Positions 550 through 59,960 of a stretch of 64,000 nucleotides of DNA are shown here, piece after piece. Position 1 is the stretch's first letter, and the number at the start of each line of letters is the position of its first letter. The stretch comes from an uncultured Erysipelothrix sp. GTDB taxonomy: Bacteria; Bacillota_I; Bacilli_A; Erysipelotrichales; Erysipelotrichaceae. Both the position numbers and the translations under genes were made by a program. Under the pieces are notes generated by a model, which worked only from the letters and a program-made list of their open reading frames with translations, made no database searches and was not told where the DNA came from. The stretch covers positions 15,380 to 79,379 of the forward strand of contig CAZZFJ010000001.1 of NCBI GenBank assembly GCA_964653415.1, written 5' to 3'.

Positions 550-1047
550 TTATCGAATCATAAATTCGCTCTCTAAATTCAATGTGTACTTAACTTGTTC
601 GAGTTCTTTACGTCCCAAATGAAGGGTTCTTGTTTCATGCGTTTGCTTAAAGCCATTTTTTTCGTAAAACTTAGCTGCTCGCACGTTTTCTTTAATATCC
701 CAAAGAAAAGCAAAGCGATAACCACGCTCAAGAAGTTCCATAGCCATTGCATGTAATAAAAGGCGCCCATAACCATGATCTACATATTCATGATTGAGGT
801 AAATACTTTGTATTTCCCCAGCATCCTCTTGCGCATCACGTATTGAGGCAATACCCACAACATCCTTATCAGATACCATCACAAAGAAATCTTTATGATT
901 TTGAATGCCTTCTAACCAATTTTTTTGAGTCACAGAATCAATAAACTCTTGCGTTAAGAAATCCTTATAAGTTTCTATAAAGCTATCAATATAAACGCGA
1001 GAAATTAATGATAAATTATCTGTGTTACGTACATTTCTAACTATCAT
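550..1047 (-). CDS. GNAT family N-acetyltransferase
   Basis: Acetyl-CoA motif IYLNHEYVDHGYGRLLL and NVRAAKFYEKNGF. Start moved to ATG 1047 (the track start at 1056 is a GTG too close to the RBS). Confidence 0.85.
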   Translation of the reverse strand: MIVRNVRNTDNLSLISRVYIDSFIETYKDFLTQEFIDSVTQKNWLEGIQNHKDFFVMVSDKDVVGIASIRDAQEDAGEIQSIYLNHEYVDHGYGRLLLHAMAMELLERGYRFAFLWDIKENVRAAKFYEKNGFKQTHETRTLHLGRKELEQVKYTLNLESEFMIR

Positions 1048-1111
1048 TAAGGTCACATCCTCTTTCTCATCATACCATTAAAGCTATATAAAAAAAAGAA
1101 AAAGATAAGTC

Positions 1112-2434
1112 CTAAGACTCATCTTCACTCTCTTGAGTTACTTTTAAGATTCGTACACGTGAAACAACTTTCTCTTCAATCTCTACAATAGAGAATAAAT
1201 ACCCATTATAAATAAAATCTGAGACATCGGAGTTTGCATCCTCAAGTGTAGGCATTCTACCCAATTCACCAATCACAAAACCACTCACTGTATCATAGTC
1301 TTCAACAGGTAAATCCGCTTGGATAACTTCCTCAAGATCTTCAAGATCAGCATATCCTTCTACAAGATACTCCCCTGAATGAACTTTATTAATCAGCACT
1401 TCTTCAACATCATACTCATCCATAATATTACCCATTACTTCTTCAATAAGATCTTCCAAAGTAATGATTCCAGCAGTACCACCATATTCATCCACAACAA
1501 CTGCAATATGAGTTTTGTGAAGTTTTAATTCAGCAAACAATTCATCAGATCTTTTGGATTCTGGCACAAAATAAGGTTTACGCATACGCTTAGTAAATTC
1601 AAATTGTGTTGGATCGCCACCCTCATAAATATATGAAAGTAAATCACGCAAGTGGAAAATCCCAACAATATTATCAATGCTATCCACATAAACTGGATAA
1701 CGCGTATAAGGCTCATTATGTACTAACTGCATTAAGTCATCAAAGCTGGTATTGATGTCTATCGCAATAACTTCAGTACGGTGAGTCATGATGTCTTCCA
1801 CTTCAAGATTATCAAACTCAAAAATATTTTCAATCATCTCTTTTTCAATAACATCAATTTCACCTTGTTCAACTAATAAGCGAATTTCTTCTTCAGTAAT
1901 CTCCTCCACAGCGTGTGGATCAATTCCAATAACAGATAAAATCAAGTTAGTTGAAAAGGACAAGAGTTTAACAATGGGCTTAAACACAACAGAAATAATA
2001 GAGATTGGGGTCGCTACTAAAAGGGCAAACTTTTCCGCATTGGCCATGGCAATTCTTTTAGGCACTAACTCACCAAAGACTAAAATTAAATACATGGTGA
2101 CAAGCGTAATCATCACCACAGCTAAAGGTTTTACAGCAACCAAACTCAAACTTCCACCTGAAATGTTAACCAAAAAATTGGCCAAACCCGTTGCGAAAGC
2201 ATCAGAAGCTAAGGCACCTGATAGAATACTGGATAAACTTACACCCACTTGAATTGCTGATAAAAAGTTAGAGGGCGATTCGATAATCGGAACTAAGCGC
2301 TTCGCATTCTTATTACCTTCTTCCGCCAATACATTTATTTTACCGTGATTAACAGATATAAACGCAAGTTCAGAACCCGCGAAAAAAGCATTCATCAGTA
2401 TCAACAACATCATGATTCCTATTTGAACACCCAT
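1112..2434 (-). CDS. HlyC/CorC (CNNM/DUF21 + CBS pair + CorC_HlyC) transporter, probable Mg2+/divalent cation efflux protein
   Basis: NAFFAGSELA, AIQVGVSL, VFGELVPKRIA, IMTHRTEV, YTRYPVY, VDEYGGTAGIITLEDLIEEVMG and a C-terminal YDTVSGFV domain. Confidence 0.92.
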   Translation of the reverse strand: MGVQIGIMMLLILMNAFFAGSELAFISVNHGKINVLAEEGNKNAKRLVPIIESPSNFLSAIQVGVSLSSILSGALASDAFATGLANFLVNISGGSLSLVAVKPLAVVMITLVTMYLILVFGELVPKRIAMANAEKFALLVATPISIISVVFKPIVKLLSFSTNLILSVIGIDPHAVEEITEEEIRLLVEQGEIDVIEKEMIENIFEFDNLEVEDIMTHRTEVIAIDINTSFDDLMQLVHNEPYTRYPVYVDSIDNIVGIFHLRDLLSYIYEGGDPTQFEFTKRMRKPYFVPESKRSDELFAELKLHKTHIAVVVDEYGGTAGIITLEDLIEEVMGNIMDEYDVEEVLINKVHSGEYLVEGYADLEDLEEVIQADLPVEDYDTVSGFVIGELGRMPTLEDANSDVSDFIYNGYLFSIVEIEEKVVSRVRILKVTQESEDES

Positions 2435-2487
2435 ATATATTCCTCACTTTCGTAAGCTAACTTCCTACAATCCTCTGTATCTTCCAT
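2419..2487 (-). CDS. Putative 22-aa leader peptide MEDTEDCRKLAYESEEYIWVFK overlapping the start of the CorC/CNNM gene
   Basis: GGAGG RBS 7 nt before ATG 2487, just downstream of a TTGACA-17-TAAAAT promoter. The stop lies inside the first codons of the downstream gene, in a different frame. Confidence 0.45.
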   Translation of the reverse strand: MEDTEDCRKLAYESEEYIWVFK

Positions 2488-2509
2488 TCATGGACCTCCA
2501 TTTTATAAT

Positions 2510-2538
2510 ATTTTAGAAGTTTAAGTTTCTCTTGTCAA
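2510..2538 (-). promoter_or_regulatory. Sigma-A promoter for the CorC/CNNM gene and its leader ORF
   Basis: TTGACA (2538-2533), 17-nt spacer, TAAAAT (2515-2510). Confidence 0.7.
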
Positions 2539-2552
2539 TAGTATATGACCGA

Positions 2553-3287
2553 TTAATCCAACAACTGAATATAATTGAGAACCTTTAATATTTCATTTTT
2601 AACTCTAGATTCCTGATTAGCTTGTGTCTCACTTGAAAACAATTTATCTTGAAAAATAAACTTATTAGAATAAATAGCAATATGCAACTCTTGTTCATTC
2701 AGATAGAAAGAGACATTTTCATGATGCTTCTCATACAACTCCAAAATCTTTTGTGGAGACAAAACCTTAAAAGCTGCTTGAGCATCATTTGTATAGATCT
2801 TGTATTCCTTATTGAAACCAATACTTTCTAACTCAATCTTCTCTAAATCCGTTTTAGCAAAAAAACCTGGTTTATGCGGGGTAGAAAAATGAAACTCTTT
2901 ATCAATAATATAAAGTTTAGAACTCAGCTTTATTTTAGGCTTAATAATGATCCATTGACCTATAAAATACGTATCCGTATGAGTCTGATCATTAACAGTA
3001 TAGCTGTCTTTTACCTCAACATTAGAAAATTCAAAATCTAAATCGTGATAACGTGCCCGTAAGTAATCTGAACTTGCATAACTATTCCCAGAGTTTACAA
3101 GCTTTGTATCATAAATTCGTCTTTTATCAATTCCCTGTGTTGTTGTATAATGGACATTATCAAAAGTAGACTCCAATACATCTTTAACAATTGTTTCTTT
3201 AAATTTCTTATTTTTAAAATAAGAAAAAATACTTCCTATAAGAATAGAAACAAATACAACTCCAAAAATCCCAAATAGAAATCCCAT
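2553..3287 (-). CDS. DUF3137-like membrane-anchored protein (LemA-associated)
   Basis: N-terminal TM helix followed by a soluble domain with F.G.W and IELESIGFNKEYKIYTND..AFKVLSP patterns typical of DUF3137. Lies directly downstream of lemA. Start moved to ATG 3287. Confidence 0.65.
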   Translation of the reverse strand: MGFLFGIFGVVFVSILIGSIFSYFKNKKFKETIVKDVLESTFDNVHYTTTQGIDKRRIYDTKLVNSGNSYASSDYLRARYHDLDFEFSNVEVKDSYTVNDQTHTDTYFIGQWIIIKPKIKLSSKLYIIDKEFHFSTPHKPGFFAKTDLEKIELESIGFNKEYKIYTNDAQAAFKVLSPQKILELYEKHHENVSFYLNEQELHIAIYSNKFIFQDKLFSSETQANQESRVKNEILKVLNYIQLLD

Positions 3288-3291
3288 AATA

Positions 3292-3828
3292 TCACCAACC
3301 CAAATCTGGATTTTGAAGCTCTGCAGCTTCAAATTTAAGCATTGATAAGGATTTAACATTCAAACTCTCTGCAGCAATATTGCCAGGAAAAGTCTCAATT
3401 CTTTGATTGAAAATTGCGATATTCGAATTATATATTCTTCTTGCGGCAGATAAGTTATCTTCCGTTTCAACAACAGCATCTTGAAGATTTAAGAATAAGC
3501 GGTCTGCCTTTAGCTCAGGATAATTCTCACTTAAAAAATTAACACGCTGATAGCCCGACTCAATCTGGCTATAAGCAACTTCTTTTTCATCTAAACTCAT
3601 ACCCTGACGGACTTGTATAATTGAGAGCAAAGTCTCTTTTTCATATTTAGCATAAGCTTTAGCGACATCCATCAGTTTCATAAGCACTTGATAACGCTTT
3701 GCTAGCGCAATATCAATATTTGAAAAACTTTCCTGAATTTTAATTTGATAGCGTTTAATATCATTATAAACACTAACATACCACATCATCGGAACAGCAA
3801 TAATCATCAGTACAATTAAGATTCCCAT
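3292..3828 (-). CDS. lemA: LemA family protein
   Basis: N-terminal TM, SNIDIALAKRY, ENYPELKAD and LSAARRIYNSNIAIFNQRIETFPGNI. Start at ATG 3828 after a GGGAGAG RBS. Confidence 0.92.
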   Translation of the reverse strand: MGILIVLMIIAVPMMWYVSVYNDIKRYQIKIQESFSNIDIALAKRYQVLMKLMDVAKAYAKYEKETLLSIIQVRQGMSLDEKEVAYSQIESGYQRVNFLSENYPELKADRLFLNLQDAVVETEDNLSAARRIYNSNIAIFNQRIETFPGNIAAESLNVKSLSMLKFEAAELQNPDLGW

Positions 3829-3922
3829 ATACTTTCTCTCCCTGCAAGATATTTGCACTCTTGGTTTATCCTTACAACCTTGTTAAGTTGTGGGTTCGCC
3901 TTACATAAAATAATAACATTTT

Positions 3923-6781
3923 CTATTCATCAAAACTCTTTAAAGCTTCACTCATATTTACTTTATTCGCCTTCTTAGCCATACGGTAGTTAATTAAAAT
4001 AGACATACCTAATGTTAAGACAAAAGCCACCAAATAAGCCGATAATTGCAGTTCATAATTAAACATAACCATATCGATTTCCGCTTGTGTTATTACAAAG
4101 TAATGGAGTATTTTCCCAAAAGCAAAACCAAAGATGCTCGACATCAAAGTTAAGATAATGTTCTCTCTTAATATGTACGATGAGAGCTCCCTTGTATTAA
4201 AACCTAGAACCTTTAAGGTGGCAAGTTCCTTCTTTCGCTCTGCCATGTTCATAGAAATTAAATTGGTTAAGACCAGAACCTCAAGAGCTAAAGCAGCCCC
4301 CACTACAACCCAAATAACAACATCAAAACTCTTCATCATATCGCCATAACTATCTTTTAACTCACCTAAGAATTGGACAGTTAAAACTTCATCACTTTGA
4401 AGTATTTTCTCTGCTAAAATATTATGATCTTCTACACTGGTTTTAAACAAAGTCATGTTGTAGTTTAAATTTGATTCCATGATATTTTCAAGTGTATCTT
4501 TACTTAAATAAATATAATGATTTGCATAGTTTTCCGTAATATGAGAAATATTAAACTCATATTTCTTATCAGAAATCATAATTTCAGTACTATCCCCTAC
4601 TTTAACTCCTAGAAGTTTAGCCAGTTTTTCAGTAATCACTATATCACTATGTTTCAAATCTAGGGCTTCATGTTTCTTACGGTCTTGCAGCTGAATGAAA
4701 TCTTGAAGTGAGTCTAAATCTTCTGCAGCATAGACGGATAAATCAAAATGCTCCGCTTTCGCACTTTCCACATAAACTTGAATACTGGAAGTGAAATCAT
4801 CCTTATAATAATCATCTTTTCCATAGAATACTAAACCATCATATTGAATAATTTCTTCAAACTGCTTATCGACAATGGAGTAAATAGAATGCTCGATTCC
4901 AAATCCTACAATAAGAAGTCCCGTAGTTCCCCCTATACCCAATAAAGTCATTAAGAAACGAGTTTTATTTCTAAATAAATTTCTAAAGCTCACTTTATAC
5001 AAGAATGAGAAACGTTGCCATAAAAATGGAATGCGTTCTAATAAAATTCTTTGGCCTGCTTGCGGGGCAACAGGTCTTAACAACTGAGCAGTTTTTTCTC
5101 TAGACACTTTCATACTCTTTACAAATGTAACCCCAACGGAGCTTAAAAAGCTGATTAAAACTGGAGTCCAAGCGTATGAAAACACAATTCCGCCTACCAT
5201 ATCAGGAGTTTGATACATGATTCGATAGGCATCATAGATTATTCTTGGAATAAAGTAGAAGCCAAAGTATAGACCTAAGGCCGTCCCAATTAACCAAGAT
5301 AAGAAGGTGAAATAAACATATTTTAATGAAGTTCTTAAGGAAGAGTAACCTAAAGCCTTGTAGACACCCATTTCCATTCGATTTTCATCAATCATACGCG
5401 TCAGGGTACTGAGCGTAATCAATATGGATACAAGAAAGAAAATAATTGGAAAGACTTTACCGATTTTCTCAATACGCATGGAATCATCATAAAACTCATT
5501 ATAACCAATGATAACATCCTCGCGACTTCGAACGTATAAAATTCCATGATCTTGTTTTTCAATTTGAGCATATGCTTTATCAATGTCACTTTGACCCTTA
5601 TCTAATTCAGACAAGGCCTTCTCTTTTTCAACAACAAAATTTTCTTTTTCTTTTTCAAGTTTCGCAACGCCTGCATTGTAATCTTTGACGCCTTGTTCTA
5701 CCTGATTATAACCCTTTAAAAACTCCTGGTTCATCGTATAAAGATCAGCGGTATTACTATCCAACTGTTGTTGGAGGTATGCTTTAACTTCCTCACTTGT
5801 TGCTTGAGCAATTTGATTTTCGATGCCCTTAATGACCATTTCAATGGCTTCTTTAGTTTTGAGGTAGCTTGCATGGGCAAACTCTAAGCGTTCATCTAAA
5901 GTTCCGGTGGTTATGGGAATAAAACTCAGTTGGCTAATTGCACTTTCTAACTGAGCTTTCGCTATTTCTAAATCTTTTTCAGCTTTATCAAATGCTCGCT
6001 CTGCAGCTTCAAACTGAAGATTTGCACTCTTTCTTGCTTCATCCAAATCTTTTTGGTGCGCTTGTAATTTTTCAATTTCAGGTTGAATTAAGCGATCAAA
6101 ACGAGCCTTTGAAATGGCTTCTGCTTCACTTTCTAAATAGGATATATCTAAGTCTTTATCTGAAATACGAACCCCTGAGTATATTGCGGGTTCATGCAAT
6201 TTAGGCAGGTCCTTGGCATACATAAAACCACTAACGGTTCCAACGCCCAACTTAGTATTCCCCCGTTCTAAGTTCATAAATAAACTCGACTCAACAAAAC
6301 CAACCACATTCACTTCCGAAGTGTCAAAGAAGTCATTTTTCATAAGTTTTATGGTATCGTTAATCTCAAAACCATAGGTTTCCTTCATCACAATATCCAA
6401 TACAACCTCTAAAGGCTTTGAAGGGAATTTTCCTTCGATTAAAGTTAAGTCATTTTTAGTCACATCAGATAGTTCAAAAACCTTAATGACACTATCAAAA
6501 TCAGTGCTATGTCCATACATATCACTTTCATAAACTGGACTTACTTCGCCTTGAACAAGGGATTGAATATCTTCAACCATTTCACTGTCAATTCCTAACG
6601 AATGTTGTGCAAGAAAGTCTAAAACGGAACGCTCATCCATATAAGCGTCCCCTGTTTGTCTCATATTGTAGCCTGTCACTTGGATTCCCACAAAGAAACC
6701 AACCCCCAAAGTTGTAATCAAAGTGAGGGCAATGAATTGATAGGCTCTTCTTTTTATCTCTCTAATTAAATCTTTTACCAT
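3923..6781 (-). CDS. FtsX-like ABC transporter permease with two TM blocks and a periplasmic coiled-coil
   Basis: FPIIFFLVSILITLSTLTRMIDENRMEMGVYKALGY and ERKKELATLKVLGF FtsX signatures; overlaps the stop of the upstream ATPase. Confidence 0.9.
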   Translation of the reverse strand: MVKDLIREIKRRAYQFIALTLITTLGVGFFVGIQVTGYNMRQTGDAYMDERSVLDFLAQHSLGIDSEMVEDIQSLVQGEVSPVYESDMYGHSTDFDSVIKVFELSDVTKNDLTLIEGKFPSKPLEVVLDIVMKETYGFEINDTIKLMKNDFFDTSEVNVVGFVESSLFMNLERGNTKLGVGTVSGFMYAKDLPKLHEPAIYSGVRISDKDLDISYLESEAEAISKARFDRLIQPEIEKLQAHQKDLDEARKSANLQFEAAERAFDKAEKDLEIAKAQLESAISQLSFIPITTGTLDERLEFAHASYLKTKEAIEMVIKGIENQIAQATSEEVKAYLQQQLDSNTADLYTMNQEFLKGYNQVEQGVKDYNAGVAKLEKEKENFVVEKEKALSELDKGQSDIDKAYAQIEKQDHGILYVRSREDVIIGYNEFYDDSMRIEKIGKVFPIIFFLVSILITLSTLTRMIDENRMEMGVYKALGYSSLRTSLKYVYFTFLSWLIGTALGLYFGFYFIPRIIYDAYRIMYQTPDMVGGIVFSYAWTPVLISFLSSVGVTFVKSMKVSREKTAQLLRPVAPQAGQRILLERIPFLWQRFSFLYKVSFRNLFRNKTRFLMTLLGIGGTTGLLIVGFGIEHSIYSIVDKQFEEIIQYDGLVFYGKDDYYKDDFTSSIQVYVESAKAEHFDLSVYAAEDLDSLQDFIQLQDRKKHEALDLKHSDIVITEKLAKLLGVKVGDSTEIMISDKKYEFNISHITENYANHYIYLSKDTLENIMESNLNYNMTLFKTSVEDHNILAEKILQSDEVLTVQFLGELKDSYGDMMKSFDVVIWVVVGAALALEVLVLTNLISMNMAERKKELATLKVLGFNTRELSSYILRENIILTLMSSIFGFAFGKILHYFVITQAEIDMVMFNYELQLSAYLVAFVLTLGMSILINYRMAKKANKVNMSEALKSFDE

Positions 6782-12389: not shown

Positions 12390-12600
12390 TCTCCTTAATT
12401 AAAAATAAAAAAGGCGCCCTAATATAGGACGCCTTAGCGTGGTACCACCTAAATTCATGATGTAAAACATCACGCACTTAATTCATCGATAACGAAATGA
12501 CCCGGTTTCTCTAACTATTCAAGAAACTAACTCACACGTGATATTCGATAAGTGTCGCTCTTCAGTTACACCAACCCTGAAGTCTCTATGAAACTACTTC
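12390..12600 (-). promoter_or_regulatory. T-box riboswitch (Ile specifier) upstream of ileS
   Basis: Minus strand has the stem I distal motif GAGACTTCAGGGTTGGTGTAACTGAAG, specifier ATC before GAA, T-box AATTTAGGTGGTACCACG and terminator AAGGCGTCCTATATTAGGGCGCCTT-T run. Confidence 0.92.
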
Positions 12601-13067
12601 TTAAAGAATGTGTCGTGATCTTTGTTAAATATCATTAAATTTTTGACAGCCTGAGCATCTACACCCGATAAAATATGAGCCAATTGGTGTGTTTTAAACT
12701 CCAATTTTTTCGTAATATCATAGTTATAGGATGCACTTGATTCCATTTCTTGAAGTACATTGTCGGCTGATGCAAGGACTTCCTGGATAATTAAATCAGC
12801 ATTTCTATATGCCTTGTTTATTATAGCACTTGCTTCTTGGTTTGCAAGTTCTATACGTTCCATAATGGCATCTTCTTTTTCCAACAAAGCGTCATATTTT
12901 TCTTCATAACTACGCTTCGCATAATCCAGCTGACTTACCAAGTGGGTAACTTGAGTTCTTAAACTGTTATTTTCATTAATAAGTTGTGCAATATCGGTTT
13001 CAAGACGTTGACGATTTTTTTCTTGATCCAGTATACTTTGACGTTTACCTGGTACGCTTTTCAGCAT
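12594..13067 (-). CDS. divIVA: DivIVA-like coiled-coil cell division protein (divergent N-terminus)
   Basis: Sits between sepF and ileS, the canonical divIVA slot. Coiled-coil with an ANQEASAIINKAYRNADLII pattern like the DivIVA C-terminal half. Confidence 0.6.
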   Translation of the reverse strand: MLKSVPGKRQSILDQEKNRQRLETDIAQLINENNSLRTQVTHLVSQLDYAKRSYEEKYDALLEKEDAIMERIELANQEASAIINKAYRNADLIIQEVLASADNVLQEMESSASYNYDITKKLEFKTHQLAHILSGVDAQAVKNLMIFNKDHDTFFKK

Positions 13068-17122: not shown

Positions 17123-17206
17123 ATGAAGCCTCGAAGTTGCAGTTCAGAGAAATGCGGACAGTTTCTCGACGAAGACCCTTGTAGTATCACAAGGAGCATC
17201 GCATAA
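17123..17206 (+). CDS. Putative mgtA leader peptide MKPRSCSSEKCGQFLDEDPCSITRSIA (alternative overlapping leader ORF at GTG 17113-17184)
   Basis: GGTGA 7 nt before ATG 17123. Lies wholly within the mgtA 5' leader and overlaps two hairpins. Confidence 0.35.
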   Translation: MKPRSCSSEKCGQFLDEDPCSITRSIA

Positions 17207-17246: not shown

Positions 17247-19826
17247 ATGAAACTAGATATTCTAGAAACCCTAAGACTCAATCAAGATGAACTCTTTGAA
17301 TTAGTCGAGGGAAAACAAGGCGGATTCACATCCGAAGAAGCCGCCACACAATTAGAAAAATTCGGACCCAACGCGATCACAAAAGCGAAAAAACCAAATC
17401 CACTCATTGGATTTGTAAACGTTTTGATTAACCCTTTTAACTTAGTTCTCATTGTGGTGATTATCATCACATTTATTAATGATATTTTAATTGTAAAAGA
17501 AAAAGATTTTGTTACCATCGGAATCCTCTTATTGGTTGTTTTAGCTTCCACTCTGGTATCCTTCATCCAAGATGAAAGATCCAGTGCAGCTGGTGAAAAA
17601 TTACTGGACATGGTATCCAATACCACAGCCGTATTACGGGATGGAAAATTCATAGAAGTTGCGATTAATGACATTGTTTTGGGTGATATCATACGTTTAT
17701 CAGCCGGAGATATTATCCCAGCTGATTTACGGATAATATCAGCCAAGGACCTCTTCTTATCTCAAGCAACATTAACTGGAGAATCCCTGCCTATTGAGAA
17801 ATGGGTGAGCTTAGATGATGAACTTTTAGACCAAGAAACTGATTATACAAACTTAGCACTCATGGGGACAAACGTTGTCTCTGGTGCAGGAAGTGGTGTT
17901 GTCATTCGCCGTGGGGATGATTCTTATTTAGGAAGCATGGCCAAGTCCCTATCAGAAATCGAAAGTACCAATAGTTTTGAAAACAGCATTAGTATTATTT
18001 CAAAACTTCTATTTAAATTGATGTTGGTGATGCTACCTATTATCTTCTTAATTAATGGACTCCTAAAAAAAGACTTTGTTTCAGCATTTATATTTGCTTT
18101 AACTGTTGCGGTAGGGCTAACACCTGAAATGTTACCCGTTGCCCTAACCAGTGGTTTATCACGCGGGGCCATCAACATGGCCAAACATAAAACAATCATT
18201 AAATCACAATCATCGATTTCAACTTTTGGAGAAATGGATATTCTATGTACTGACAAAACAGGTACAATTACTCAAGATGAAATCATCTTAGAGCGATATA
18301 TGGATGTTAAAGGTGATGATGATATGCGTATACTTAGACACGCTTATCTAAACTCCTACTTCCAAAGTGGACTAAAAAATTTAATCGACTTAGCTATCAT
18401 TACCCGTGCTGAATCATATAATATGCAAGATTTAGTCAATTACTATGATGTAGTAGATGAAATTCCATTTGATTTTGCTCGACGCAGAATGAGTGTTATC
18501 CTAGAAGATCAAAACGGAAAACGACAATTAATTACTAAAGGAGCTGTCGAAGAGATTCTAGAGAACTCTAAATATATCGACCGCGATGGTGAAGTCATGT
18601 TACTGGATGATACCGTACGTGCTGAAGCCCTTGAAGTATATTCCCAGCATAATCATGATGGTTTACGAATGATTGCAGTTGCACAAAAAAATGACATTCC
18701 TGAAGAGCATGAGTTTTCAATTGAAGATGAAAATGACCTGGTGCTCATTGGATTCATTGGATTTTTAGACCCACCAAAAGAAAGTGCCAAACCAACAATC
18801 GAAAGTTTACACGATCATGGTGTTGAAGTAGTGGTCATTACAGGCGACTCCCTAGGAGTAGCGAAAAAAGTTTGTTCTAAAGTTGGAATTGAAACAGATA
18901 TAACCTATTTAGGAACTGAGATTGAAATGATGAGTGATGAAGAACTTCAAGAAATCATCCCAACATGTCAACTTTACGCCAAAATATCACCTACCCAAAA
19001 ACAAAGAATTGTACAGGCCTATCAAAACCGAGGCCATATCGTTGGATTCTTGGGTGATGGTATTAATGACTCCCTAGCATTAGGTCAAGCAGATGTTGGT
19101 ATTTCTGTAGATACAGCTGTAGATATCGCCAAAGAAAGTGCTGATATCATTCTTTTAGAAAAAGACTTACGCGTACTTGAAGCTGGAATCCTTGAAGGTA
19201 GAAAAACAATAGTGAACATGATTAAATATCTCGAACTTGCTGTTAGTGGTAACTTTGGGAATATGATATCTGTTATTGTTGCAAGTATCTTCTTGCCCTT
19301 TTTACCCCTATTACCTGTTCATATTTTAGTTCAAAATTTAATTTCTGATGTAGCGCAGATCGGTATTCCTTTTGATAACGTTGAGGAATCAGAAGTCTTA
19401 AGACCCAAGCGATTAGATAGTAACTCACTCAAACACTTCATGAAAGTATTTGGTCCTTTGAGTTCTATCTTCGATATCCTCTGTTTTGTAGTTCTATGGT
19501 TTGTCTTAAAAATTCAAACACCAGAACAAGCCATCATTTTCCAAGTATTCTGGTTCACATTTGGAATCATTTCACAATCCTTGGTCATCTATGTCATTCG
19601 TACTAAAAAACCTTTATCAATCAAAAACAAACCCTCTACAACGATGGTCATAACCACCTTGTCATCTGTAGTTGCAACACTCTTAATTGTTACAACTCGT
19701 CTTTCAGAAACAGTAGATTTAATTATGATTGATCCCATTCACTTACTGTGGGTATTTGGAATTGTTGCATTGTACTTAACAACAACAATTATCGTCAAAA
19801 AATTTACTTGGACCCCATTAGATTAA
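17247..19826 (+). CDS. mgtA: Magnesium-translocating P-type ATPase (P3B)
   Basis: TGES, VGLTPEMLP, phosphorylation motif LCTDKTGT, YFQSGLKNLID, DEIPFDFARRRMS, FLDPPK, GDGIND and SGNFGNMIS. Confidence 0.93.
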   Translation: MKLDILETLRLNQDELFELVEGKQGGFTSEEAATQLEKFGPNAITKAKKPNPLIGFVNVLINPFNLVLIVVIIITFINDILIVKEKDFVTIGILLLVVLASTLVSFIQDERSSAAGEKLLDMVSNTTAVLRDGKFIEVAINDIVLGDIIRLSAGDIIPADLRIISAKDLFLSQATLTGESLPIEKWVSLDDELLDQETDYTNLALMGTNVVSGAGSGVVIRRGDDSYLGSMAKSLSEIESTNSFENSISIISKLLFKLMLVMLPIIFLINGLLKKDFVSAFIFALTVAVGLTPEMLPVALTSGLSRGAINMAKHKTIIKSQSSISTFGEMDILCTDKTGTITQDEIILERYMDVKGDDDMRILRHAYLNSYFQSGLKNLIDLAIITRAESYNMQDLVNYYDVVDEIPFDFARRRMSVILEDQNGKRQLITKGAVEEILENSKYIDRDGEVMLLDDTVRAEALEVYSQHNHDGLRMIAVAQKNDIPEEHEFSIEDENDLVLIGFIGFLDPPKESAKPTIESLHDHGVEVVVITGDSLGVAKKVCSKVGIETDITYLGTEIEMMSDEELQEIIPTCQLYAKISPTQKQRIVQAYQNRGHIVGFLGDGINDSLALGQADVGISVDTAVDIAKESADIILLEKDLRVLEAGILEGRKTIVNMIKYLELAVSGNFGNMISVIVASIFLPFLPLLPVHILVQNLISDVAQIGIPFDNVEESEVLRPKRLDSNSLKHFMKVFGPLSSIFDILCFVVLWFVLKIQTPEQAIIFQVFWFTFGIISQSLVIYVIRTKKPLSIKNKPSTTMVITTLSSVVATLLIVTTRLSETVDLIMIDPIHLLWVFGIVALYLTTTIIVKKFTWTPLD

Positions 19827-36734: not shown

Positions 36735-37002
36735 GTACAAATAAAAAAGTGCCACCGCAACAAGGACGATAAAAGTCTACCGCGGTACCACCTATATTCT
36801 CAATATCATTGAGCTCTTAAACTTTTAACGCAAGTAAAACGCTTCTCTCTACCAGTTCAAAAGAAGAGCTCCAAGATGAGTTCAATAGATTCCGCTTGTT
36901 GATTTACACCTAACATCAACTCTCTAGAAAGCTTTGTCTATCTACTAGTTCTTTTCATCGCTTATACTTCTATATATTAATTGTTTATTGAAGTCTTGTC
37001 AA
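36735..37002 (-). promoter_or_regulatory. Promoter and T-box riboswitch (Leu) upstream of leuS
   Basis: TTGACA-17-TAATAT, AGTA, stem I GAGAGTTGATGTTAGGTGTAAATCAAC, a Leu codon (CTT or TTG) in GAACTCATCTTGGAG, T-box AATATAGGTGGTACCGCG and a downstream hairpin with T run. Confidence 0.88.
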
Positions 37003-53027: not shown

Positions 53028-53104
53028 TGGCGCGCCCGACAGGACTTGAACCCACAACCTTTTGAACCGGAATCAAACGCGCTATCCAATTGCGCCACGG
53101 ACGC
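53028..53104 (-). tRNA. tRNA-Arg (anticodon CCG)
   Basis: GCGTCCG acceptor stem, D-arm TGGCGCAATTGGATAGCGC, anticodon arm TTTGA-TTCCGGT-TCAAA, T-arm GTGGGTTCAAGTCCTGT and encoded CCA end. Confidence 0.95.
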
Positions 53105-59751: not shown

Positions 59752-59801
59752 ATGGGTAAATAACTTTATTAAAGGATTCTTTTAAGCTATAATATAAAAG
59801 A

Positions 59802-59960
59802 ATACTTCAGGGCAGGGTGTAATTCCCGACCGGCGGTAAACCCCGCGAACCTTTGGGTTGAATCAGTGAAATTCTGGTGGCGACAGTAAAGTCTGGATGG
59901 AAGAAGTTTTTTTTCATGTCTCCTGGAGTGTATCATTTTTTTGAAACTAGGAGGTTTTTT
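59802..59960 (+). ncRNA. FMN riboswitch (RFN element) with expression platform
   Basis: CTTCAGGGCAGGGTGTAATTCCCGACCGGCGGT...CAGTGAAATTCTG...CGACAGTAAAGTCTGGATGGAAGAAG. Downstream hairpin CTCCTGG/CTAGGAG covers the RBS and is followed by a T run. Confidence 0.95.

Follow-up and report, generated by a model that had tools for sequence, protein, structure and literature searches.

We report that the gene for a CNNM/CorB-type transporter in Erysipelothrix is preceded by a short upstream open reading frame (uORF) that runs across the ribosome-binding site (RBS) of the transporter gene. Comparison of orthologues shows that, in all of Erysipelothrix and in a large part of the Erysipelotrichaceae, selection has acted on the leader ORF, on its strong Shine-Dalgarno sequence (SD), on its acidic N-terminus and on its extension over the RBS of the putative exporter, with the rest of the peptide free to vary in sequence and length. 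On balance, we favor the explanation that the acidic leader ties exporter synthesis to ribosome stability, and thereby to cellular magnesium, via intrinsic ribosome destabilization (IRD); the Mg2+ response of the leader is the part that we infer.

A leader ORF overlapping a CNNM/CorB-type gene

The locus lies in a 64,000-nucleotide stretch of an uncultured Erysipelothrix sp. (the window). An earlier note, made from the letters of this DNA, had described a promoter, a GGAGG, a 22-codon acidic uORF and its overlap with the CNNM gene, and each of these elements is found where the note had placed it on the minus strand (Table 1). The promoter is the best promoter-like site between positions 900 and 4000, and transcription would start at about 2503, a few bases 5' of the uORF SD; in relatives, too, the uORF SD is immediately preceded by a TTGACA/TTGACT-type promoter. 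Another ATG, at 2491, follows the SD by only 3 nt; it opens an 8-codon ORF and was disregarded. Seven of the 22 residues of the leader peptide are acidic, four of them within the first six. The uORF and the CNNM gene share 16 nt in different frames (the uORF stop ends at +16), and their starts are 53 nt apart (offset 2), so that deleting one AT from the (AT)4 run fuses the frames. The SD of the CNNM gene is inside the uORF and would therefore be passed over by ribosomes translating the leader. The promoter and the terminator-like hairpin suggest that leader and CNNM gene form a monocistronic unit.

Table 1. Features of the leader and the CNNM/CorB-type gene, in window coordinates
Feature	Position	Strand	Detail
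Sigma-70-type promoter, TTGACA 2538-2533 / 17-nt spacer / TAAAAT 2515-2510	2510..2538	minus	11/12 matches
SD of uORF, GGAGG	2495..2499	minus	7 nt before uORF ATG
Leader uORF, 22 codons + stop, ATG 2487 to TAG 2419	2419..2487	minus	Peptide MEDTEDCRKLAYESEEYIWVFK
Acidic core, codons 2-6 (GAA GAT ACA GAG GAT = E D T E D)	2470..2484	minus	Conserved IRD-like portion
Alternative 5-bp stems of the earlier note: GTAGG 2468-2464, CTTAC 2456-2452, GAAA, GTGAG 2447-2443	2443..2468	minus	Present; not counted as functional
SD of CNNM gene, GAGGA	2441..2445	minus	Inside uORF
(AT)4 run across main start codon	2433..2440	minus	Sequence
CNNM/CorB-type transporter gene, 440 aa	1112..2434	minus	CNNM (DUF21) membrane domain, CBS pair, CorC_HlyC
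Terminator-like hairpin, then T run	1101..1126	minus	Just 3' of CNNM stop codon

The gene product has the domain architecture of the CNNM/CorB family, with a membrane domain (CNNM, PF01595, 6.4e-47), two CBS motifs (PF00571 in two stretches, 1.8e-17) and CorC_HlyC (PF03471, 3.6e-17), and it matches the CorB structures 7m1u/7m1t with E about 1e-45. All NCBIfam equivalogs score under their cut-offs (GldE 264 bits against 376, PaeA 240 against 500, CorC 131 against 379), so the substrate is not assignable from them; the polyamine-exporter model PaeA outscores CorC, both being below cut-off. Mg2+ efflux is the activity that membership in the family would predict.

Conservation and composition of the leader

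One 22-codon ORF arising by chance has little meaning; its significance comes from comparison. The alignment that the earlier note had proposed as a check bears out the uORF: it is present, SD-led and 18-44 codons long, in 22/22 Erysipelothrix orthologues, and within the genus it is never fused in frame with the CNNM gene. GGAGG is followed by GTG or ATG 6-9 nt further on in all 22 (7 nt in 18/22). The same arrangement recurs in 23/40 sampled orthologues from other Erysipelotrichaceae genera; across genus and family the uORF spans 18-53 codons, and its frame offset relative to the CNNM gene is 1 or 2, never 0. In L002 and L003, the closest relatives of the window locus, the uORF is likewise separate and 20-22 codons long.

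Beyond the N-terminus, what is kept is the open frame rather than the peptide. The uORF frame is open up to the main start in all 22 genus orthologues, the other two frames containing 1-8 stops each, and over 26 diverged lineages the joint shuffle probability of a frame open beyond codon 10 is about 1e-17, while sequence past residue 10 is not conserved even between close species. The uORF thus has what is expected of a regulatory leader, namely its own SD and start and a frame maintained independently of peptide sequence and length. Its stop also lies near or over a downstream start in a different frame, as in overlapping ORF pairs: in 36 non-identical uORF loci the end of the stop falls at -1 to +19, counted from the main start, a range to be read against the 60% of out-of-frame read-throughs in the genome that are expected to end within 19 nt of a start, which makes the position of the stop weak evidence for re-initiation. 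One locus has a uORF that terminates about 50 nt too soon.

Within its genome, the uORF is the only real SD-led one ending on the start of a long ORF; three other candidates returned by a genome-wide search for acidic uORFs were rejected as artefacts (one inside purL, one inside gyrA and one T-box-like leader). An exact look-up of seven uORF peptides in a collection of 15 billion proteins found six absent and one present as an unnamed gene call: such leader peptides are missing from annotation. The comparisons support the view that the uORF is a real, conserved and translated-looking leader, physically coupled to the CNNM gene.

The conserved part of the peptide is its acidic N-terminus, in line with the acidic codons that the earlier note had singled out. 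Asp and Glu make up 40% of uORF residues 2-8, compared with 9% in the background, and bulky residues are scarce (0-10% in uORFs vs 24-47%); after residue 10, composition is normal again. Every Erysipelothrix uORF (100%) has an acidic residue at aligned position 5, where GAA, GAG, GAT and GAC are all used, which argues for selection on the residue class rather than on the bases. The published IRD criterion calls for a 10-residue window that immediately follows the initiator Met and holds more than three D/E/P, the neighboring residues being small and not bulky (Chadani et al., 2021). MEDTEDCRKLAYESEEYIWVFK has four (E2, D3, E5 and D6) in residues 2-11, with T and C as neighbors. More than three D/E/P at positions 2-11 occur in 1% of background N-termini, compared with 72% of the uORFs from Erysipelothrix and 45% of those from other genera; about half of the latter thus stay below the published threshold. 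In all uORFs the acidic core lies at residues 2-7, within the first ~30 residues, when the exit tunnel is still empty. None of the 327 GGAGG-led long ORFs in the genome has four acidic residues at positions 2-9, and N-termini of highly expressed genes are lysine-rich, with 30% basic and 9% acidic residues at positions 2-3. As far as composition can tell, the leader fits the published IRD rules.

In more distant orthologues (38-43% identity) the transporter itself begins with a comparable acidic/proline motif (MDADPQTTS, MDPDPNS), read in frame and placed just ahead of the first membrane helix. In a 70-protein tree, with gene rows taken from tblastn coordinates and row L140 left out, a single 51-row clade (SH-aLRT 98) holds all 45 genes with a uORF and none of the in-frame cases; the detached, coupled uORF therefore looks derived, apparently from an in-frame N-terminal motif. 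Five genes within the clade have no leader, corresponding to three inferred losses, and together with the one early uORF stop these losses indicate that the uORF is dispensable in some lineages.

Proposed ribosome-based control and its alternatives

A leader of this composition could act as follows. The exporter mRNA would open with a well-translated short ORF whose first 6-10 residues are acidic and small, with no bulky side chains. When the nascent chain is only a few residues long, this sequence would destabilize the translating ribosome, more so at low Mg2+, where many ribosomes would abort in the first codons and never reach the exporter RBS. At high Mg2+, the leader would be completed, the RBS region would be unfolded or occupied, and termination would take place on the start codon, leading to re-initiation or fresh initiation and to more exporter. 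In the distant orthologues, the motif in frame at the transporter N-terminus would give the same logic directly. The earlier note had proposed this direction of control, with stable ribosomes or high Mg2+ turning the exporter on, and it would fit the architecture, the in-frame acidic N-termini of distant orthologues and the proposal made for CorC/YbeX by Chadani et al. (2021). A point against such a sensor is that the main RBS of the window is barely structured (opening cost 5.0 kcal/mol, vs 4.5 kcal/mol for the uORF RBS) and has its own SD, so that it might initiate independently.

The earlier note had also suggested that mutually exclusive 5-bp hairpins in the leader mask or free the exporter SD. 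Each of its pairing segments can be located, and the minimum free energy (MFE) fold includes the CTTAC/GTGAG stem, but neither stands out from chance or is conserved: the leader folds no better than its shuffles (z = -0.87), CTTAC and GTGAG are missing in L002 and L003, and Rfam gives only chance-level matches in the leader region (2000-3000, E up to 10) and nothing relevant in the whole window at gathering scores. There is a different, covarying 5-bp hairpin (GGAC...GUCC, codons 6-10) in the long-leader Erysipelothrix species; it is specific to that clade, is not in the window and does not involve the main SD. An RNA switch acting on the exporter SD is thus, in our judgment, very improbable. 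The long-leader species also show hardly any base changes in the first 30 nt of their uORFs, a segment that contains a covarying hairpin; an RNA-level function is therefore at work there as well, which is a further point against the sensor described above. A hairpin at +10 to +42 was set aside as a general feature, since it is clade-specific (long-leader Erysipelothrix, and one other genus with a different sequence) and absent from the window. A hairpin with the uORF start codon in its loop (H1) shows no compensatory change and 20% broken cells and is not claimed. The uORF could instead encode a small protein with a function of its own, such as a metal-binding Asp/Cys peptide or a transporter partner: Cys is common near residues 7-10 (in Erysipelothrix, 67% at aligned position 9), and it is especially abundant in one uORF, MKDCSDQCCDRMCCKEMRLGNEC. 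Set against this, lengths vary from 18 to 53 residues with no conservation beyond residue 10, the Erysipelothrix Cys codon belongs to the 3' arm of the covarying hairpin and gives way to Tyr or Leu where the stem changes, and several C-terminal Cys residues arise because the uORF reads through the ATG of the main gene in another frame; we give this explanation very little weight. A last explanation is an artefact or phase variation, in which the gene really begins with the uORF and has been cut in two by slippage at the (AT)4 run or by an error in the assembly; the earlier note had itself raised slippage and assembly error. Deletion of one AT does fuse the frames, and more distant orthologues do have an in-frame acidic N-terminus, but 45 orthologues from many species, L002 and L003 among them, have a separate uORF at offset 1 or 2 and no AT run, and the Pfam CNNM domain begins at residue 7 of the gene as called, which makes this explanation very unlikely, to the point of being negligible.

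Two further explanations were weighed. One keeps the sensor and reverses its sign: ribosomes on the uORF would occlude the SD and start of the exporter, and their abortion at low Mg2+ would de-repress it. The uORF SD (GGAGG) is indeed stronger than the main SD in the window, the uORF covers the whole main RBS, that RBS is not masked in the window and would need no help to initiate, abortion in MgtQ promotes downstream translation, and the substrate may not be Mg2+ given that PaeA scores above CorC. However, abortion at the in-frame motif of distant orthologues can only lower expression, a change of sign on detachment would be the less economical scenario, and, if the protein resembles CorB or MpfA in function, raising the amount of a Mg2+ exporter when Mg2+ is scarce would work against the cell. 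The main RBS is, moreover, on average harder to open than the uORF RBS (8.3 vs 5.4 kcal/mol averaged over 36 loci, and harder in 30/36 of them). We regard the reversed sign as distinctly unlikely. The leader could also be a constitutive translational coupler or enhancer, or a sensor of something other than Mg2+ (polyamines, pH or the supply of Asp/Glu-tRNA), its acidity being inherited from a transporter N-terminus where it once served an N-out topology. The positive-inside rule would account for in-frame acidic N-termini before a first membrane helix with no need for regulation, the tree hints at a transporter N-terminus as the ancestor of the uORF start, and NCBIfam assigns no substrate to the CNNM protein. 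Yet the detached peptide has no topological role and has kept its acidic, small-residue character across many genera, with free codon choice at the acidic residues and a fast-evolving remainder; the lysine-rich rather than acidic N-termini of highly expressed genes also speak against it, as does the D(D/E)DP leader that mgtA has independently in this genus. This explanation we consider unlikely, leaving the acidic leader as a Mg2+-responsive IRD element, on when completed, as the reading that we favor.

Related leaders and magnesium homeostasis

The earlier note knew of no described leader of this kind in Firmicutes. This stands in the searchable literature as regards Firmicutes, but the principle has been published for enterobacteria, with MgtL, MgtQ, YbeX and YoaL. 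In E. coli CorC/YbeX, an N-terminal IRD sequence is proposed to abort less at high Mg2+ and so to yield more efflux protein (Chadani et al., 2021; bioRxiv 10.1101/2021.02.02.429294). There too, ribosomes on the mRNA of a Mg2+-efflux factor of the CorC family begin with an acidic small-residue stretch (MSDDNSHSSDT), and the in-frame N-termini of the distant orthologues have the same arrangement. The YbeX motif is, however, part of the protein, and YbeX has no membrane domain, whereas here a separate, out-of-frame uORF precedes a full CNNM/CorB transporter in a Gram-positive lineage. MgtL, too, is a short leader ORF that has an SD and precedes a Mg2+ transporter on the same mRNA, and its acidic/proline start (MEPDPT) makes translation abort at low Mg2+ (bioRxiv 10.1101/2021.02.02.429294). 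Its target, however, is an importer, turned on at low Mg2+, and control relies on transcription termination and alternative RNA structures within a long leader, whereas the Erysipelothrix leader measures 53 nt from start to start, overlaps its gene, has no terminator and would target an exporter. MgtQ, an 8-codon uORF before mgtB in Salmonella, shares the strong SD (AGGAGG) and the control of a Mg2+ transporter at the level of translation; its acidic residues at positions 2 and 5 are required and bL31 counteracts it (Choi et al., 2021; PMC8092293). Unlike the present leader, MgtQ lies well upstream of its gene and remodels a stem-loop hiding the RBS, its abortion promotes expression, and its target is an importer (PMC8092293).

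Another parallel is YoaL of E. coli and Salmonella, a small upstream ORF that overlaps the start region of yoaE/mgpA, a CorC-domain gene protecting against excess Mg2+. Knocking out the YoaL start codon strongly lowers yoaE/mgpA translation, i.e., coupling is positive. YoaL is not known to have acidic or IRD character, and YoaE/MgpA is a TerC-CBS-CorC protein with a TerC rather than a CNNM membrane domain.

In Firmicutes, Mg2+ importer genes can carry the M-box (ykoK), a structured Mg2+ riboswitch RNA of ~170 nt. Both are cis-acting elements on Mg2+ transporter genes of Gram-positive bacteria, if the CNNM leader responds to Mg2+ as we propose, but the CNNM leader has no M-box match and is compact, at about 55-135 nt. 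The M-box (RF00380) was not found anywhere in the genome, in a search that matched control genomes. mgtA, whose leader lies at 17123-17206 of the window, has its own conserved D(D/E)DP uORF, in 19/22 assessable loci.

Regulation of Mg2+ efflux in bacteria is little understood: control of corC and mgpA is called unclear in the Salmonella literature, and the IRD idea for CorC is based on a single E. coli protein. The locus described here adds a Gram-positive, family-wide example with a full CNNM/CorB transporter, in which the acidic motif is naturally separated from the protein, and this separation argues for an action during translation. We tentatively raise the broader possibility, which we hold with less than even confidence, that Erysipelotrichaceae lack a detectable M-box and sense Mg2+ via the ribosome instead, with two acidic leader peptides of opposite output: a non-overlapping D(D/E)DP uORF would turn the importer mgtA on upon abortion, and an overlapping acidic uORF would turn the CNNM exporter on only when completed. 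The detached N-terminus of the exporter would then be natural evidence that the acidic/proline N-termini widespread among bacterial CNNM/CorB proteins serve to sense Mg2+ during translation and do not belong to the protein as such. Taken together, the CNNM leader and the D(D/E)DP leader of mgtA suggest that this lineage, from which the M-box is apparently missing, has a Mg2+ homeostat based on the ribosome.

The CNNM/CorB-type gene and its leader

All the sequence elements described in the earlier note, namely a promoter, a GGAGG Shine-Dalgarno (SD) motif, a 22-codon upstream open reading frame (uORF) and the gene downstream of it, were found on the minus strand (table below). The nearest solved relatives of the gene product are the CorB structures 7m1u and 7m1t, and the Pfam CNNM domain begins at residue 7, so that the called start gives a normal N-terminus. 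Since a terminator-like hairpin lies 3' of the gene and a DUF3137 gene is the upstream neighbor of the leader, the unit comprises the promoter, the leader and a single gene. The DUF3137 gene and a LemA-family gene, listed as overlapping ORFs, have no evident tie to this unit. Against NCBIfam equivalogs, every score of the product was below the cut-off and PaeA scored higher than CorC, so these scores assign no substrate to the transporter.

Coordinates of the leader, the CNNM gene and other features of the window
Feature	Position	Strand	Remarks
Promoter	TTGACA 2538-2533; TAAAAT 2515-2510	-	17-nt spacer; 11/12 matches; top promoter-like site within 900-4000
uORF SD GGAGG	2499-2495	-	7 bases 5' of uORF ATG
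uORF	ATG 2487, TAG end 2419	-	22 codons; peptide MEDTEDCRKLAYESEEYIWVFK
CNNM/CorB-type gene	2434-1112	-	440 aa; Pfam CNNM membrane domain, CBS pair, CorC_HlyC domain
DUF3137 gene	2553-3359	-	
LemA-family gene	3292-3858	-	
T-box leader	12422-12631	-	Rfam match
mgtA uORF	17123-17206	+	MKPRSCSSEKCGQFLDEDPCSITRSIA
mgtA	17247-19826	+	
T-box leader	36759-36967	-	Rfam match
tRNA	53031-53104	-	Rfam match
FMN riboswitch	59799-59912	+	Rfam match

Conservation of the frame and of its acidic start

We compared 22 orthologues from 22 Erysipelothrix species. In each, GGAGG is followed after 6-9 nt (7 nt in 18/22) by a start codon, GTG except in the window, which has ATG. This codon opens a uORF of 18-44 codons, and the uORF ends -1 to +19 nt from where the CNNM start codon begins. 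The frame between the two start codons contains no premature stop, against 1-8 stops in each other frame. Past about codon 10, peptides of different clades can no longer be aligned and vary in length; the frame is nonetheless open, with a joint probability of ~1e-17 by shuffling over 26 diverged lineages. Because 60% of out-of-frame read-throughs in the window's genome are expected to end no more than 19 nt past a start, the real constraint is the lack of a uORF stop before the exporter's RBS. The earlier note had also considered slippage or an assembly error at an (AT)4 run, where loss of one AT would fuse the two frames. The separate frames of all 22 orthologues (offset 1 or 2 and in none 0) and the position of the CNNM domain make this very unlikely.

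The Erysipelothrix peptides begin with the consensus M-E-(N/E/D)-x-(D/E)-x-D-(S/R)-C-P, shortened to M-E-D-T-E-D-C-R-K in the window's clade. The invariantly acidic position is encoded by GAA, GAG, GAT and GAC across the genus, which shows that residue class, not base sequence, is under selection. When 38 non-identical uORFs were set against 335 GGAGG-led long ORFs of the window's genome, D/E made up 40% of residues 2-8 versus 9%, falling back to 9% past residue 10, and bulky hydrophobics 0-10% versus 24-47%, most residues being small. Four acidic residues in positions 2-9 occur in 0/327 GGAGG-led long ORFs of this genome, where the CNNM leader is also the sole genuine SD-led uORF whose end falls on a long ORF's start; of three further candidates, all rejected, two lie within purL and gyrA, respectively, and one belongs to a T-box-like leader. 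Leader peptides often have a Cys near residues 7-10, and the one from a locus of genus g31 (L074, MKDCSDQCCDRMCCKEMRLGNEC) is unusually Cys-rich (7 Cys in 23 residues).

Distribution and origin across the family

Orthologues at E <= 1e-90 were present in 56 of 201 sampled genomes of the family, and we examined 40 upstream regions from other genera. An out-of-frame, SD-led uORF reaches the CNNM start codon in 23. Its N-terminus is acidic, small-residue or proline-rich (MNDDPGDADRR..., MNENPDPCRC..., MEDSDTDTPIS..., MTESDSSSAPSC..., MSDEGSDERE...); it ends at +1 to +19 in 22 and at -4 in L084, and about half of these uORFs fall below the published DE/P (Asp, Glu, Pro) threshold. Another acidic uORF stops ~50 nt early (L076), and five orthologues have none. 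In the 11 most distant (38-43% identity; 10 clear, L097 doubtful), the motif is in frame and abuts the first membrane helix (MDADPQTTS, MDTDPAGTS, MDPDPNS, MPTDPDAS), as it is in clostridial homologues (MDDTDPDTNN, MVDPDPDTNH). The observation of the earlier note is confirmed and, on these comparative grounds, much stronger. Four things are shown to be conserved: an apparently translated frame, the SD that precedes it, the acidity of its first residues and its reach across the RBS of the exporter.

Many CNNM/CorB homologues have an in-frame acidic/proline start before the first membrane helix (MDVDPEPS, MDPDGEQ, MDDTDPDTNN, MDADPQTTS); those recorded here (L024, L025, L045-L052, L093-L104) come from other Erysipelotrichaceae genera and other Bacillota. 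Such N-termini may be translational sensors, topology signals or both. When 70 full-length proteins were placed in a maximum-likelihood tree, all 45 uORF-bearing genes fell in one clade of 51 rows (SH-aLRT 98). The gene with the early stop belongs to it too, as do five genes that have no uORF and from which three losses of the leader in some lineages are deduced. With clostridial sequences as the root, every in-frame case lies outside this clade; the root is approximate because this outgroup is not one side of any branch. The simplest reading would be a single event in which the acidic N-terminus of an ancestor became a separate, coupled uORF that was then kept. A detached peptide cannot serve membrane topology, yet its character is maintained, which bears on function. 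One uORF-less CNNM gene, from a MAG labelled Atopostipes (L043, contig JARICH010000072.1), sits on a long branch (0.78) within the Erysipelothrix clade beside L007 (SH-aLRT 97) and could reflect horizontal transfer or a mis-binned contig.

RNA structure and a possible Mg2+ response

A switch between mutually exclusive 5-bp stems over the main SD, in which CTTAC pairs with GTGAG or GTAGG, had been proposed in the earlier note and finds no support: the leader fold (-13.2 kcal/mol, z = -0.87) is not better than dinucleotide shuffles, opening costs are about equal for the main and uORF RBS (5.0 versus 4.5 kcal/mol), the CTTAC and GTGAG arms are absent from the two closest orthologues (L002, L003), and an Rfam search of the leader matched no family. 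At gathering scores, Rfam matches nothing in the window beyond the two T-box leaders, the FMN riboswitch and the tRNA of the table. Across loci, opening the main RBS costs more than opening that of the uORF in 30/36 (mean 8.3 versus 5.4 kcal/mol), a comparison poorly controlled because the uORF RBS lies at the transcript 5' end; it lends modest support to the mechanism proposed below.

In the long-leader Erysipelothrix loci (L007-L022, to which the window does not belong), the uORF is nearly invariant at base level over its first 30 nt. Over the first 40 nt (GGAGGAUUGUUUGUGGAAAACAGUGACCAGGACAGUUGUCC) this includes third codon positions, while the CNNM proteins are only ~60% identical. Codons 6-10 form a 5-bp hairpin, (A/G/U)GGAC-AGUU-GUCC(U/C/A), with both sides changing in two of five pairs (outer pair AU in 5, GC in 4, UA in 1; inner pair CG in 9, UA in 2). 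Two species have an extra codon in the loop with the stem intact, which speaks for a hairpin in the RNA rather than a DNA palindrome bound by a protein. In another genus, a hairpin of different sequence lies equally far from the start and shows an exchange of A-U for U-A. We speculate that the hairpin at codons 6-10 may slow the ribosome when it has made only 3-7 residues of the chain. The GUG start codon sits in the loop of a second hairpin, which showed no covariation.

DE/P-rich sequence right after the start codon destabilizes the translating ribosome (intrinsic ribosome destabilization, IRD), favored by small neighboring residues, an empty exit tunnel, low Mg2+ and missing bL31; MgtL senses Mg2+ in this way (Chadani et al. 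2021, bioRxiv 10.1101/2021.02.02.429294). In E. coli YbeX/CorC, the same authors demonstrated IRD at the start of the protein (MSDDNSHSSDT), which by their proposal lets high Mg2+ increase efflux capacity (bioRxiv 10.1101/2021.02.02.429294). Control of mgtB by the 8-codon uORF MgtQ depends on its Asp2 and Glu5 (PMC8092293), and translation of yoaE/mgpA needs the leader ORF YoaL. A translational Mg2+ sensor driving the exporter, as suggested in the earlier note, is plausible; for enterobacterial CorC-family genes the idea is already in print. At low Mg2+, ribosomes would abort in the leader's first codons and not reach the exporter's RBS; at high Mg2+, the leader would be completed, the RBS region opened or occupied by ribosomes, and termination on the exporter start codon would allow initiation there. 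The sign proposed for the regulation rests mainly on continuity with the in-frame arrangement, in which abortion could do nothing but lower expression.

The M-box (RF00380) was not found in the window's own genome (94.7% complete) by a search that matches B. subtilis and L. lactis. Upstream of mgtA, 19 of 22 assessable Erysipelothrix loci carry a uORF, 24-34 codons long, whose D-(D/E)-D-P core (DEDP, DDDP or EEDP) at about residues 16-22 hardly varies and which ends 25-79 nt before mgtA without overlap: an MgtL-like leader in a Gram-positive genus.

The CNNM leader is kept across much of Erysipelotrichaceae and is unannotated, and a leader of this kind is not described in the searchable literature. 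Our verdict, from comparative sequence, is that it is probably an IRD-like peptide that has become separate from a CNNM/CorB exporter and is coupled to it in translation. The importer and the exporter of one genus both have acidic leader peptides with different output architectures, which would fit a common ribosome-based sensor with opposite outputs.
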